Shown: positions 359-5,610, counted from the stretch's first letter. The stretch: DNA of 6,119 nucleotides from a virus (IMGVR_UViG_2534681763_000010:1-6119); one strand, 5' to 3'. Notes: generated by a model from the letters alone, not told the origin. A program made the numbers and translations.

Positions 359-579
359 CTGTCCTGATTTGTACTCACTCATTTTCCGCCTGACAATTTA
401 CATAGCCCAAATGCTATCAAATCTGACAGTCTGCTTTGAGCGAAGAGCGGACTTGAGACTATTGTAAATGAAAACCATATAATTTTAACCGGCAGAAACA
501 CATGAGTAATTTTAAGGCTAATTAGTTATCTGGGAGATGAGGGGCAAAGCACGATATCGTACACCAATGGAATAAGCTT

Positions 580-613
580 ATGATTAATATAAATATAAAA
601 GGCAGAAAGCCTT
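580..613 (-). terminator. Weak candidate terminator-like hairpin inside the 600-bp non-coding spacer
   Basis: 5-bp stem AAGGC (599..603) / GCCTT (609..613) with loop AGAAA; on the minus strand it is followed by the U/A-rich run UUUUAUAUUUAUAUU (plus 598..580). Short stem, so low confidence. Confidence 0.25.
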
Positions 614-833
614 CCTCAAAATGGCTTGAATCGGGGGCATCTGTCTGCGAAACGATTTTTTAGACGTTTTTATCGCTTTCAGTTCAGTTTTCCCCTCGAA
701 TCCAAGTGACAAAGCCGATTTAGTTTTCACACATCCGTACAATGTGCATCCCTCGATGAGCCTTTTCAGGCAAAGTTACGGGGATGCTTGATTCATTTAA
801 ACTGAGTTAGTACAACTTAATTAATAATATCAT

Positions 834-1826
834 TTATGCTAGAGTTGAATATTCTCCATTTCCTCGGTCGGTGAGTGTTAATTCGCGGCCATTTTCTGTA
901 AATGTAATGGCATCCAGCAGGCTTTTTCCTGTTACAGCTATACCATATCCAAGGTTATCAATCTTTGAACTGTCCTCAGATGATATTGGTATTTGTACAA
1001 GCATACCAACAACAAAGCCGTATTTGTTAATTATAGGGCCACCGCTATTCCCCCCCTTAACCCTAGCATTGAATAATAAAAAGTCTTGTGAATCTAAGTA
1101 AGAGTGACCAGAACCAACAATTCGCCCCTTTGACAGTCGGACAAACGAATTTATATGCGAAACGTCATATAACTTTAATGCATCAAATCCTGGAATGGGT
1201 GGAAATCCTATTGATAAAATTTCATCCAGTACCGAGGCTTTGGTTGAGACCTTAAGTGGTTGAATATTATCTTCATTCGGAATGGTTGTGAAAACTAAAG
1301 CGATATCAATACGTTCATCGTTAGATACAAAGATTTTATGTATTGGTAAAGCCTCACCACCAGCTCTAAGTATCCTGATACTCTTCATGTCTTCAATAAC
1401 ATGTCTGGCTGTAAATATCGTGTGGTTATTCCCAACAATAAAACTAGTACCAAGATCATGTGAACCATCACTTTTTTCAACAACAACAGGTAAAACGGAA
1501 GGACTAAGGCGGTCTATGATTGACTCAAATCCATCAGCTATAAAATCATACTTTCCATATTTCGCATCTGATTCATTGAAATTCGGTGCGAAATAGCAAC
1601 GGTCCAAAAGAGTATGTCCTGAAGATAATTCCATTAAAATACCTTCAGTTGCTAGCTTTTCACAATTGCGTATTAACTTCATCATATCGAGAGTATTTTC
1701 CCACTCAGGTTTGAGACGGGTCAGGCTCTCAATTGTTTTTCTCTCTTTTACGTTATCGTTTTCCGGTTTGTCATAAAAATATTTCACTATTTCTGTTGGT
1801 GTTACATATGTTTTTTTTATAGTCAT
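834..1826 (-). CDS. Trypsin-like (chymotrypsin-fold, S1 family, HtrA/DegP-like motifs) serine protease with an uncharacterised N-terminal domain; cargo (moron) gene in the G-FI hotspot
   Basis: Long minus-strand ORF ending at TAA 836..834. Catalytic motifs in canonical His-Asp-Ser order: TARHV (His codon 1401..1403), DIALVF (Asp codon 1305..1307), GGNSGGP (Ser codon 1044..1046). No hydrophobic signal peptide or transmembrane stretch at the N-terminus, so probably cytoplasmic. About 35% GC versus about 55-63% in flanking tail genes. Start chosen at ATG 1826 (MTIKKTYV...) because a candidate promoter lies just upstream; the track ORF starts at an in-frame GTG at 1880 (18 codons longer), which cannot be excluded. 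Confidence 0.8.
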   Translation of the reverse strand: MTIKKTYVTPTEIVKYFYDKPENDNVKERKTIESLTRLKPEWENTLDMMKLIRNCEKLATEGILMELSSGHTLLDRCYFAPNFNESDAKYGKYDFIADGFESIIDRLSPSVLPVVVEKSDGSHDLGTSFIVGNNHTIFTARHVIEDMKSIRILRAGGEALPIHKIFVSNDERIDIALVFTTIPNEDNIQPLKVSTKASVLDEILSIGFPPIPGFDALKLYDVSHINSFVRLSKGRIVGSGHSYLDSQDFLLFNARVKGGNSGGPIINKYGFVVGMLVQIPISSEDSSKIDNLGYGIAVTGKSLLDAITFTENGRELTLTDRGNGEYSTLA

Positions 1827-1870
1827 TTTTGTACCCGCGATGACGTTATTCCATATATTTTTCTTTGTAG

Positions 1871-1899
1871 AAAATATCACTATTGCTGGTAAATGTTAA
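1871..1899 (-). promoter_or_regulatory. Candidate sigma70-type promoter for the protease gene
   Basis: On the minus strand, TTAACA (plus 1899..1894), 17-nt spacer, TATTTT (plus 1876..1871). This predicts a transcript start near 1864, consistent with the ATG at 1826 rather than the GTG at 1880. Pattern match only. Confidence 0.3.
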
Positions 1900-2144
1900 G
1901 TTCAGTGCTCGCACTAAAGCTGGATGATCAACGTCGCCCTCGTATGGAAATCAGGTAAGATTCATGTCTACTTGGGGTCTAGGGTAGACAGCATAAAAAC
2001 GTACGATAGCGTTCGATTGGCTCTCACCCCCGCCTATAAACCATGAGGTTGATAGGGTAGTATCGTTAGGCAATAGTATACATGTAAGTATCCAACCTAA
2101 TTGGTCTTGAGATTTCTAACTAACGTGTCGTTATGTCCGCTCCT

Positions 2145-2219: not shown

Positions 2220-2747
2220 TTATTGCGGCATTTCCGGCCATTCAGGATTTGCAGGATCCACACGACTGATCAGAACGCTGTAGCGTTCCCATGATTCCAG
2301 TCGGCTACGCTCCTCATCTGTTGCCATGTTCAGTCTGACCGCGCGCTCCAGCGGCAAAATCACGGATTCAGCATCTGCAAGAAGTCTGGCTTTCCGAATT
2401 TCTGCCTGCTGCTGTAATTCCTCTGCCGTATAAATGCGTTTAATCACTTTGCCGTCCTTAAACATCCAGTTCCCTGAAATGTCCGCCCGTCGGTTAGCAG
2501 TAATATCCGCCACTTCAACAACACTTAATCCATCCGGTCTGATAGCTGTCACATCCTTTTCCACATAGTGGATGATATTATCTTTGTCGTACGCTATTTT
2601 TATCGTGTCATCAGCAAAATACTTTTGTTCTTCGTACCAGTTCTTACCATCTTCTGAAAAAAACCAGACAACATCAAAGTCCTTTGTCAATTGATATTGT
2701 TCAACCGTTTTTGGATTACCCACCGTTATATTTATCAAATGCTGCAT
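2220..2747 (-). CDS. G: Tail fibre assembly chaperone (P2 gpG-like)
   Basis: 175-aa ORF; N-terminus MQHL.N...GNPKT.EQYQLTK and C-terminus [44 protein letters not shown] match my memory of P2 gpG. The ATG at 2747 lies 3 nt downstream of the H stop codon, typical operon packing. Confidence 0.9.
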
Positions 2748-2750
2748 AAA

Positions 2751-5069
2751 TTATACCTGCGCCACGTTATACCATGTCCCGTTAATGTATTTCTGCACCG
2801 GTCTGTAATATATGCCACCAATGTTATCGGCAGAGTTTGAGCCGGTATCCTGAACAATAATGCCGGAATATACACACCCGGACGGTGCCTGATGTGTCCA
2901 TGTCATGCCATTGTTCGCAGGTTTGTATGTGGCAGCACCACCAAGCCGGATATCCCGGACATAGCGTGAATCAAAGTTGCCATAGTTAGATGGTGATACC
3001 TGCCCGTTAACAGCAAAAGTGATGCTGTTATCTGTATTTCTCTGACTGTAAAAATGCCAGCCTGCATCATCACCTAATTCAGCCACCACCGGACGACTTG
3101 AGTTTCCCCACAAATTGAATGCGGCTTCCTTCGTGGATGTATTACTGCTGCTGACCGTGAATTTTTTCCCGCTACCGGCACGTACTTTGGTACTTGAGAC
3201 AATATCACCAGTAACATTCAGGCCATGCCCCATTGATACAGCACCCGTGGCATCATTTATAATCAGCGGTCTTAAATTATTATAACTGCCTAATCTGTCA
3301 CCTGATTTAGTCAACATAAAATAAGTGCTGCTGCCATCATTCCTGATAAAGAAACCATAATTGCCATAAGCAATGCGCAGACCATTAGCACTGAGTGATG
3401 TAATCTCACCTCTTGAACGGAGACCATAAGCGGAGCTGAGTGATAATTCTTCCTGAGCATCAGTATTACCAGTCGCCCAGCGAACTACCCCGCCCTGTAC
3501 TGTTTCATGCCAGATAGTGTCTCCTTCTCCACCACGAAACTTTCTGAGATATTTTTTGCCGCCTCTGGTGCCTGAACATAAGGCCGTAGACATATAGGCA
3601 TTCTGGCTTCCGCCATCCTGATTAATCGTTCCGGTCATTGCGTCGCCCTGACGATTCCAGTCACGACGCCAGCCGGGGGAGTAGCCGTCCCCATGATTTA
3701 TGTAAGTGAATTGCGCGCTGGTTGTACCGCCACCGCTTGATGTTGTCGGCGTGGTCACTCGGATAGTGATTGCAGATTTAGTTCCCATGACCTCGACGAC
3801 ACAACCAGCCAGGTGGATATCACCACATCCGGTATCCGTAATGATTTTGTTATTTGCATATGACCAGGAGCCTTTGCACATCCAGTACGGATGATTAAAT
3901 GCACCACGGGAATCCAGCCATTCAATAAACTGAGCGGTTGTCCAGTTTCCGGCTTCAGTGCTCAAAGCGCCGCTATAAGCACGACAGGCACCGATATTTT
4001 TCGTGAAGGTATCCTTTCCCGGAATATCCGCACCGTTCTGATCTTTCTGAAGACGTTTTTCAGCATTGTCATAGGCAGACTTCACCGCTTTTGATGTTGC
4101 GGCCAGCGTTTCAGAATCACTGTTGGTGGCGCTACTGAGCTGAACAAGACCTTTCCGCGCCGTGGTGGCGTCCTGTGCAGTGTATTTCCCGTTAGCAAGG
4201 TCATACGCTGTCTTAACCGCCTTTGGCGTTGCCGCAAGCGTTTCAGAATCGCTGTTGGTGGCGCTACTGAGCTGGACAAGACCTTTTCGCGCTGTGGTGG
4301 CGTCCTGTGCAGTGTATTTCCCGTTAGCAAGGTCATATGCTGCCTTTACCGCTTTTGGTGTTGCGGCGAGCGTTTCAGACGTGCTGTTGGTGGCGCTACT
4401 GAGCTGGACAAGGCCTTTTCGCGCTGTGGTGGCATCCTGCGCAGTGTATTTCCCGTTAGCAAGATCATACGCGGCCTTTACCGCTTTCGGCGTTGCGGCC
4501 AGTGTTTCAGACGTGCTGTTGGTCGCATTGCTTAACTGAGTAAAACCTTTTGCGGTCAGCGAGGCGTCCGGGTGACGTCGTGACTGTTCATGCTCTGCAA
4601 TTTTGTCATCAACGTAATCCTGCGTCGCCATCACCGTTGTGGTGTCAATGGTCAGCGCCACTGAGGCCACACTGCTGACGATGATGACCATGCGACAGGT
4701 CTGCGAACGCCCTGAGCCTTCGGCAAGAGCTGGCTTATAACTTTCGGCCATGTTCGCCACGGCAATTAATGTTCCCGCATCATCGTACAGGCCAAGCTCA
4801 CGCATCCAGAAACCGCCCACCTCCGGCGGAATAACCAGCTCTGCGATAATATAATTACTGTTTCGTTTGTCCTGGCTGATTTTGTTCAGCGCATGTCGCC
4901 AGACTTCATGGATAAGCCCGGTCTGTCCGGCATTCGGGACAGGCAATTTACCACCGCCATCCCCGACGGCCATCGTGGTAATGTTGACCTTCCGCCCTCC
5001 CGGCGCGGTTGCCGCTGCCAGCTTTGCTGCACCGGCAGTGGTGATAACGGTTCTGAATTTTGTGCTCAT
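2751..5069 (-). CDS. H: Tail fibre protein (P2 gpH-like), mosaic: conserved N-terminal baseplate-attachment region, expanded 44-aa repeat shaft, divergent central region, P2-like C-terminus
   Basis: 772-aa ORF with GAGGA 5 nt upstream of the ATG at 5069. The N-terminal approx. 170 aa (MSTKFRTVITTAGAAKLAAA...ATQDYVDDKIAEHEQSRRHPDA) and the C-terminal approx. 138 aa (...AGWHFYSQRNTDNS...PVQKYINGTWYNVAQV) resemble P2 H as I recall it. It is longer than P2 H (about 669 aa from memory). Confidence 0.9.
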   Translation of the reverse strand: MSTKFRTVITTAGAAKLAAATAPGGRKVNITTMAVGDGGGKLPVPNAGQTGLIHEVWRHALNKISQDKRNSNYIIAELVIPPEVGGFWMRELGLYDDAGTLIAVANMAESYKPALAEGSGRSQTCRMVIIVSSVASVALTIDTTTVMATQDYVDDKIAEHEQSRRHPDASLTAKGFTQLSNATNSTSETLAATPKAVKAAYDLANGKYTAQDATTARKGLVQLSSATNSTSETLAATPKAVKAAYDLANGKYTAQDATTARKGLVQLSSATNSDSETLAATPKAVKTAYDLANGKYTAQDATTARKGLVQLSSATNSDSETLAATSKAVKSAYDNAEKRLQKDQNGADIPGKDTFTKNIGACRAYSGALSTEAGNWTTAQFIEWLDSRGAFNHPYWMCKGSWSYANNKIITDTGCGDIHLAGCVVEVMGTKSAITIRVTTPTTSSGGGTTSAQFTYINHGDGYSPGWRRDWNRQGDAMTGTINQDGGSQNAYMSTALCSGTRGGKKYLRKFRGGEGDTIWHETVQGGVVRWATGNTDAQEELSLSSAYGLRSRGEITSLSANGLRIAYGNYGFFIRNDGSSTYFMLTKSGDRLGSYNNLRPLIINDATGAVSMGHGLNVTGDIVSSTKVRAGSGKKFTVSSSNTSTKEAAFNLWGNSSRPVVAELGDDAGWHFYSQRNTDNSITFAVNGQVSPSNYGNFDSRYVRDIRLGGAATYKPANNGMTWTHQAPSGCVYSGIIVQDTGSNSADNIGGIYYRPVQKYINGTWYNVAQV
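4040..4560. repeat. Tandem 132-bp (44-codon) in-frame repeats inside tail-fibre gene H: three near-full copies plus diverged partial copies at each end
   Basis: The motif GCTACTGAGCTG(A/G)ACAAG recurs at 4131, 4263 and 4395, an exact 132-nt period. Encoded units read TARKGLVQLSSATNS(T/D)SETLAATPKAVK(A/T)AYDLANGKYTAQDAT. The repeats also generate the spurious overlapping track ORFs 4082..4336 (-) and 4162..4539 (+). Confidence 0.85.
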
Positions 5070-5079
5070 TATTCCTCAC

Positions 5080-5610
5080 TTATCCGGGATAAACCGTAAT
5101 TACATCGCCGTCGTAAGCCACACCACCGGCGAACAGGTAGCCGGGAATGTCCCGGGTAATGTTCAGGCCAATAAGGTGACGGCTTGCAGGTTTGGCATCA
5201 GCAATCAGCCGTTCCATTTCCTGATACATTGCCTCTGTGATGCCACTTTCCAGTACACCAATATCAAGCCGGAAGGTGCCGGGCGGGTCACTGTTTTCCC
5301 ACCACTCCGTCACGTTGATGAGATAGCCGAGCGGCTCCACCACACGCCGGATTGCACCTATAGTGCCTTTATGACAGTGGATGAAATACGCATCGCGGAT
5401 AACGGCGCGTTTTGTCGCTTCCGGCCACTTCTCATCCCACCTGTCGACCGAAAACGCCCACGCCAGCCACGGCAGCAAATTTGCCGGACAGGTATCCGGG
5501 TTCCACAGCTCACGAATACTGACCGGCGTTTTTTCAATTTCCGCACAGGCTTTTGCGGCGGCGACCTCAAGCGGTGATGAGCCGGTCGGCAGCAGTCGCG
5601 AATCACTCAT
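5080..5610 (-). CDS. I: Baseplate/tail protein I (P2 gpI-like)
   Basis: 176-aa ORF directly upstream of H on the coding strand; the sequence (MSDSRLLPTGSSPLEVAAAKACAEIEK...) agrees with my memory of P2 gpI. Its ATG at 5610 overlaps the J stop codon by 8 nt (ATGAGTGA), indicating translational coupling. Confidence 0.9.
   Translation of the reverse strand: MSDSRLLPTGSSPLEVAAAKACAEIEKTPVSIRELWNPDTCPANLLPWLAWAFSVDRWDEKWPEATKRAVIRDAYFIHCHKGTIGAIRRVVEPLGYLINVTEWWENSDPPGTFRLDIGVLESGITEAMYQEMERLIADAKPASRHLIGLNITRDIPGYLFAGGVAYDGDVITVYPG

Follow-up and report, generated by a model that had tools for sequence, protein, structure and literature searches.

Whole-unit gain and loss in a 132-nt coding tandem repeat of the tail fibre gene of a P2-like Escherichia coli prophage

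The bacteria open to attack by a phage, or by a particle derived from one, are determined by its tail fibres. The fibres harboring the Pfam family PF03406 (Phage_fiber_2), namely P2 gpH, Mu S, lambda Stf and the fibres of E. coli prophages, share the motif …KGxvQLSsaT.S.SE..AAT.KAVK… with a period of about 44 amino acids, and in these proteins the repeat follows an N-terminal attachment domain. The tail fibre protein H analyzed here agrees with them in both respects and differs in number only, possessing four units compared to two in P2 and one each in Mu S and L-413C. Going by their titles, Tetart et al. reportedly described duplications in the T4 gp37 adhesin with an expanded host range in 1996 (PMID 8637004), and tail-fibre recombination at conserved motifs with swapping of modules in 1998 (PMID 9737921; both as cited in PMC3157838). 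The resemblance to T4 gp37 lies in a fibre gene that is changed by tandem duplication and by recombination at motifs; the difference is that the T4 duplications are located in the distal adhesin, whereas the units of H are proximal and far from the receptor-binding end.

The Phage_fiber_2 domain is present in lambda Stf and in prophage fibres of EHEC, where its structure and function were noted as unknown, and EHEC prophage fibre proteins show a length polymorphism of collagen-like and coiled-coil regions in whole multiples of the repeat (PMC3368898). Among the relatives of H, protein length likewise changes in steps of whole repeats, but the EHEC repeats are of low complexity with a period of 3 or 7 residues, while the unit of H comprises 44 residues and has a conserved motif. 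P2 fibres are currently being re-engineered for bacterial targeting (PMC9594776). Our full-text literature search returned no description of unit copy-number variation in P2-type fibres, though an earlier account may exist, and none is given in the papers on P2-like fibres PMC5285337, PMC7460101, PMC9594776 and PMC13100340. Both the repeat family and the exact H protein are already annotated in public databases. What is added here is the demonstration that unequal recombination adds and removes units, and the recognition of the array as the seam at which distal modules are joined.

Gene H in the tail gene cluster

The window, by which we mean the whole stretch of 6,119 nt that was analyzed, covers the distal end of a tail gene cluster that belongs to a P2-like (Peduovirus) E. 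coli prophage and is read on the minus strand. The genes and the domains of H are located as follows.

From 5603 upward, minus strand: 3′ part of J, with a Pfam match to Baseplate_J
5080–5610, minus strand: I, baseplate protein, upstream of H (PF09684 Tail_P2_I, E=6e-56)
2751–5069, minus strand: H, P2-type tail fibre of 772 aa (PF12571, four PF03406 matches and PF21446)
4617–5069, minus strand: N-terminal tail-collar fibre domain of H, aa 1–151 (PF12571, E=4e-58; about 95% nucleotide identity to P2 H)
3609–4073, minus strand: H aa 333–487, homologue of the variable part of the Mu G(-) fibre S′ (phmmer, PDB 8ju3 residues 176–332, domain E=1.8e-69)
3258–3449, minus strand: T4 gp34-like trimerisation domain of H, aa 541–604 (PF21446, E=5e-25; PDB 4uxe, 5nxf)
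2757–3434, minus strand: distal H aa 546–771, homologue of the C-terminal receptor-binding region of Mu S (phmmer, 5yvq residues 262–503, domain E=1.6e-44)
2220–2747, minus strand: G, tail fibre assembly chaperone (PF02413 Caudo_TAP, E=2e-33; position as P2 G)
834–1880, minus strand: trypsin-like peptidase, a low-GC cargo gene

Eight closed E. coli genomes, including that of strain 120899, contain a gene annotated as 'tail fiber protein' with 100% nucleotide identity to H, and the product of H is 100% identical to the RefSeq entry WP_000104742.1 'tail fiber protein'. The same protein is encoded on more than 100 contigs, where it is sometimes annotated as 'phage tail fiber repeat family protein'. 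Since the N-terminus of Mu gp49 docks on a wedge protein (PMC11915804), the conserved N-terminal domain of H would by analogy be the part that attaches the fibre to the baseplate. Two open reading frames in other frames of the repeat region (4082–4336 on the minus and 4162–4539 on the plus strand) were rejected as genes, as they are repeat-driven, periodic by-products within the well-supported H.

With P2, the locus shares the gene order J-I-H-G with a Caudo_TAP chaperone downstream of the fibre gene, and the N-terminal region of about 210 amino acids is about 95% identical at the nucleotide level. This identity extends across nt 1–860 of the H gene, one unit excepted, and the homology stops just past the AATPKAVK of the last unit, beyond which the two proteins are unrelated. 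P2 H consists of 669 aa and carries two units, the first and the last, without any internal unit; H of the window differs from it by two extra internal units and by a distal part of 430 aa that is Mu S′/S-like and includes the gp34-type trimerisation domain. The expectation, stated in the sequence-only reading of this DNA, that P2 H would have fewer units and be about 100 aa shorter was thus correct (two against four units, 669 against 772 aa). Of the 103 aa by which the proteins differ, 88 aa are the two missing units and 15 aa are due to the different distal module, the non-repeat residues numbering 581 in P2 H and 596 in H of the window. The N-terminal domain and the gene order are those of a P2-type gpH, while a P2-like distal receptor-binding part is absent, and the fibre is a mosaic relative, as is usual for the H gene.

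An in-frame array of four units

Between PF12571 and the distal domains, H contains four head-to-tail units of 44 aa each (aa 168–343, window 4041–4568) that are in frame and follow an exact period of 132 nt. The array and its units are given in the order in which the protein is read.

4068–4523, no strand: array at the DNA level (TRF: period 132, 3.5 copies, 89% matches, 0% indels, score 695)
4437–4568, minus strand: unit 1, diverged 'anchor', aa 168–211, with 29–32 nt differences to the internal units
4305–4436, minus strand: unit 2, internal, aa 212–255, with 12 differences in 132 nt to unit 3
4173–4304, minus strand: unit 3, internal, aa 256–299; relatives gain or lose internal units
4041–4172, minus strand: unit 4, the last, aa 300–343, conserved to AATsKAVK and followed by the distal module

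This arrangement agrees with the sequence-only reading, which had placed a 132-nt repeat with a 44-aa unit at 4040–4560 and had proposed a tandem-repeat finder as a check; the finder reported a single strong array in H. An ungapped repeat finder returned three copies of 226 nt spaced by 132 nt with 88% and 82% identity, and chance cannot account for 88% identity over 226 nt without a gap. The pairwise nucleotide identity amounts to 91% between units 2 and 3, 78% between units 1 and 2, 75% between units 3 and 4 and 61% between units 1 and 4. Hence, the identity of 85–90% that had been estimated by eye holds for the TRF consensus (89%) and not for the individual pairs, which range from 61 to 91%. 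Nine of the 12 differences between units 2 and 3 fall on third codon positions and two alter an amino acid. Unit 4 differs from the internal units at 33–35 nt, chiefly in its second half, and the divergence within the two end units is located in the 5′ part of unit 1 and in the 3′ part of the last unit. At the nucleotide level, the initial count of three near-full copies plus two partial ones therefore describes the array fairly.

On the protein level, PF03406 matches H four times, with units at aa 168, 212, 256 and 300, at 253 bits (gathering cut-off 22, E=8e-77), and the best stretch spans profile positions 1–41 of 42. The in-frame character of the units within the fibre protein, as originally read, is thereby substantiated, and the array is an in-frame coding minisatellite of the known Phage_fiber_2 repeat family. 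It also shows what is expected of a coding minisatellite or VNTR, namely similar units in frame, alleles that differ in number only, and chimeric and duplicate units.

Structural information on the unit is scarce in the PDB, in which the sole sequence with a unit is that of the Mu fibre S (residues 111–154), and the in-situ study of Mu modelled the N-terminus of gp49 only (PMC11915804). Prediction of aa 144–389 as a single chain without alignment by AlphaFold2 yielded an unusable model (pLDDT 43, pTM 0.26). The exact Chi sequence GCTGGTGG is absent from the array, in which one-mismatch variants alone recur with the repeat; Chi sites as a stimulus of recombination were hence rejected.

Unit number among relatives and footprints of its change

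We counted the units in three independent samples of related fibres. The first comprised the best 120 protein clusters of a search in 5.8 billion proteins, all of which possess the distal domain of the window. Three units were found in 39 of these clusters, four in 71, five in seven and six in three, and the respective protein lengths of 728, 772, 816/819 and 862/863 aa correspond to these numbers. The second sample was picked by the N-terminal domain alone and consisted of 80 IMG/VR loci, supplemented by 25 genomes of other species (among them Citrobacter, Enterobacter, Salmonella, Buttiauxella and Scandinavium). The IMG/VR loci carried two (10 loci), three (3), four (53) or five units (14), and the genomes of other species one (5 genomes), two (11), three (7) or four (2). 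In all 105 of these loci, the array starts at aa 167/168 and keeps the exact 44-aa spacing. Several distal types each occur with at least three different unit numbers among 102 relatives. Comparison of H homologues and counting of their units, which the sequence-only reading had suggested, thus gave three, four, five or six units in front of the same distal domain; a uniform copy number with diverged repeats, named there as the observation that would speak for a fixed domain, was not what we found.

The third sample, isolated phages with finished genomes, covers the lower part of this range, with one unit in L-413C, two in P2, three in P37 and four in vB_YpM_46, vB_YpM_115 and vB_YpM_117. Since these phages are infectious, each number from one to four yields working fibres, and since five and six units are found in prophages in addition, the array is tolerant of both shortening and lengthening of the fibre. 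The variable shaft length that had been envisaged is therefore borne out as protein length; for the physical fibre, each unit would contribute a fixed increment of length. The number of units does not correlate with the length of the distal module (Spearman -0.14, p=0.37, 44 architectures), and a compensation of one length by the other was rejected on this ground.

A neighbor-joining tree of the non-repeat parts of proteins with the window's distal type requires at least 13 changes of the unit number, and six protein pairs show no difference over the 596 non-repeat amino acids while their unit numbers differ by one or two. For three pairs that are alike outside the array and unequal in unit number, we compared the DNA and found 0–1 differences within the gene (about 1,800 nt) and 0–2 in the flanks (about 1,900 nt). 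The alleles L115 (five units) and L116 (six units) show no difference in the 510-nt 5′ part, in the 1290-nt 3′ part and in the shared units, and the extra unit of L116 duplicates unit 3 of L115 exactly. Exact duplicate units are present in L110/L116 and L111, and the internal units of expanded alleles are identical or only 1–2 nt apart.

The loss of a unit is illustrated by the three-unit allele L112, which resides in the closed genome CP057487, and the four-unit allele L113: outside the array, a single difference separates the two over 1,791 nt of the gene, and their flanks are identical over 1,930 nt. Units 2 and 3 of L113 differ at eleven sites. Compared to L113, the lone internal unit of L112 has the state of unit 2 at sites 6 and 13 and that of unit 3 at sites 42, 44, 55–57, 69, 72, 78 and 84, which places a single switch, without exceptions, between unit positions 13 and 42. 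Such a chimera bears the mark of an unequal crossover in register or, equivalently, of a strand slippage that deleted exactly 132 bp. Taken together with the exact duplicates, the pairs are a clean demonstration of gain and loss of whole units by unequal recombination in otherwise identical prophage backgrounds, and the suspicion that copy number varies by recombination among related prophages (three to six units with the same distal domain) proved justified.

The proximal part of H, a trimeric fibre, thus very probably contains a coding minisatellite between the attachment domain and the exchangeable modules whose units change in number by unequal recombination. The diverged first and last units would act as anchors, and the likeness of the internal units (91% here and up to 100% in relatives) would allow homologous pairing exactly one unit out of register. 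Unequal crossing-over or slipped mispairing during replication could then add or remove whole units while the frame is kept, the outcome being fibres with one to six units. Either RecA-dependent recombination or replication slippage may be the enzymatic route. The process is unequal crossing-over of a textbook style with a visible footprint and involves no new mechanism.

The number of units may be relevant to adsorption or host range. It is also conceivable, if rather unlikely in our estimate, that the number is an adaptive 'reach' by which the distance between tip and baseplate is tuned to the depth of O-antigen or capsule. If this were true, the minisatellite would be a determinant of host range independent of the receptor-binding domain, and selection would keep it prone to recombination.

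Stability of the array, competing explanations and the distal junction

Among 5,426 closed E. coli genomes, the best 60 matches to H (96.8–100% identity) all have a length of 2319 nt and hence four units. A query with a three-unit allele gave about six closed genomes with the three-unit form among the matches listed, and a query with a five-unit allele gave no five-unit form in the best 30 matches. In 40 distinct four-unit arrays, units at the same position differ between alleles by a mean of 6.7–9.7, while units 2 and 3 within an allele usually differ at 11–16 sites, with a mode of 12. Since units at a given position are closer across alleles than the two internal units of one allele are to each other, most arrays have been inherited unchanged. 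Units 2 and 3 would usually be old paralogues by this measure; rare homogenised four-unit arrays exist in which they show a single difference. The retention of four units across closed genomes and the apparent age of the internal units point to a long-lived state with sporadic changes. The variation of the array is moderate, not rampant, and the array is neither hypervariable nor a contingency locus.

A competing explanation takes the array of four units for a fixed domain of the structure, with the differences between relatives being ancient lineage architectures that were imported by module exchange with other phages. Copy number tracks the distal type in that the P2 type always has two units, the 642-aa type four and the 709-aa type five; the four units are conserved over 3% nucleotide divergence in the closed genomes listed, and the usual age of units 2 and 3 is in line with a fixed domain as well. 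Ancient architectures would not, however, leave pairs with no difference outside the array and an unequal number of units, nor an exact extra unit and a single-crossover chimera on backgrounds that are identical including the flanking genes, and neither the minimum of 13 changes on the tree nor the distal types with three or more unit numbers conform to them. The identical-background pairs and the footprints largely refute this explanation, and we consider it very unlikely. Somewhat less probable still is that the differences in copy number are artefacts of short-read assembly, caused by collapse or expansion of a 132-bp repeat. It is true that for the fibre type of the window, alleles with five and six units, among them those of GCA_021504165.1, GCA_052495845.1, ERZ28564728 and ERZ28564755, are confined to drafts and metagenomes in our samples, and that runs of identical units exceeding the read length assemble poorly. 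Yet alleles with two, three and four units are all represented both among closed genomes and among isolated phages whose genomes are finished, and the three-unit chimeric allele (P0008) occurs on 34 contigs including the closed genome CP057487. Collapse moreover reduces counts and cannot add exact copies, an identical six-unit array was recovered in two separate metagenome assemblies, and most units differ at several sites per 132 nt and can hence be placed by 150-nt reads.

A programmed diversification of the fibre at high frequency, by an invertible segment, a diversity-generating retroelement or a phase-variable simple repeat, is barely credible. It would be suggested by the distal part of H, which resembles both Mu S and Mu S′, the two fibres that are switched by the Gin invertase in Mu; invertible segments of this kind are Mu G and P1 C. 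Against it, Pfam detected neither an invertase nor a reverse transcriptase in the five large open reading frames of the 6.1-kb window (I, partial J, H, G and the peptidase), the 132-bp unit is not a simple-sequence tract, and the four-unit state lasts across diverged closed genomes. A coding minisatellite that changes by unequal recombination hence remains the preferred reading. In practical terms, a 132-bp array of this kind carries a risk of miscounting for short-read assemblies and annotation pipelines.

The array exactly marks the border at which the conserved attachment domain gives way to exchangeable distal modules. Among the 102 relatives, the stretch of 60 residues downstream of the last AATxKAVK belongs to at least 16 unrelated types, and the first half of the last unit, being conserved, is likely to serve as a patch of homology for the exchange of modules, as the sequence comparison suggests. 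Located at the domain border and equipped with the AATxKAVK patch, the array would be a length-variable spacer and a junction for module exchange at the same time. The junction fits, by analogy, the recombination at conserved motifs and the precedent of duplication within the gene that are ascribed to Tetart et al. In the last unit, …AATxKAVK forms the natural seam to at least 16 distal modules and suggests itself as a fusion point for chimeric fibres.

Distal modules of the tail fibre protein H

In the array of 44-aa units in the tail fibre gene H, the last unit (window 4041–4172) contains the motif AATxKAVK, and among 102 relatives (loci L004–L108) at least 16 unrelated distal sequences start directly after the last copy of this motif. 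The last AATxKAVK motif is a natural seam for the exchange of distal modules. The portion of H concerned was delineated by Pfam and by comparison with PDB sequences:

Window 2757–4073, minus strand: distal two thirds of H (aa 333–771)

Residues 333–487 are similar to the Mu G(-) fibre S' (PDB chain 8ju3), residues 541–604 to the trimerisation domain of T4 gp34, and residues 546–771 to the C-terminus of the Mu G(+) fibre S (PDB entry 5yvq). By these similarities, H is a mosaic even within its distal two thirds. Whereas Mu carries the S'-like and S-like segments on alternative, invertible fibres, both are fused into one protein in the H of the window.

The cargo gene downstream of G

A further gene was assigned by Pfam:

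Window 834–1880, minus strand: trypsin-like (S1) peptidase gene, 348 aa

It occupies the cargo slot 3' of the chaperone gene G, in which P2 instead has fun(Z), and its GC content is 36–40% compared to 52–59% for the adjoining tail genes (profile of window 401–2000). In PADLOC, the peptidase matches defence proteins (RT-Protease_XI, LmuA, HamA-like) in their protease domains only, and the slot after G in other E. coli holds SIR2, DarT with a macro domain, Lit, HNH, kinase, DUF3800 or DUF4145 genes. We regard the peptidase gene as a candidate anti-phage cargo gene.

Related loci and irregular records

The whole window was found as a single piece in no closed genome of the collection searched. 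E. coli 120899 (NZ_CP025916.1; L117) carries two P2-like prophages, at ~2.06 Mb and ~4.16 Mb, one of which has an H gene 100% identical to that of the window and a different cargo after G, while the other has the peptidase cargo and tail genes that are 97.8% identical. In L109, L110, L115 and L116, whose H proteins have 819 and 863 aa, G is immediately followed by gpU and the tape-measure gene on the opposite strand; the cargo slot and sheath genes expected here from the P2 order are missing, which suggests a rearranged tail cluster.

Genome records of the Gram-positive Vagococcus sp. WN89Y (L098) and of Chryseobacterium sp. 18061 (L103, Bacteroidota) contain an enterobacterial-type P2 H gene with 74–78% identity in the N-terminal domain, and these contigs are probably contaminated or mislabelled. 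Premature stops end H shortly after the array or inside the region following it in three IMG/VR loci (L063, 322 aa; L068, 289 aa; L078, 519 aa), which may represent pseudogenes or frameshifted assemblies.
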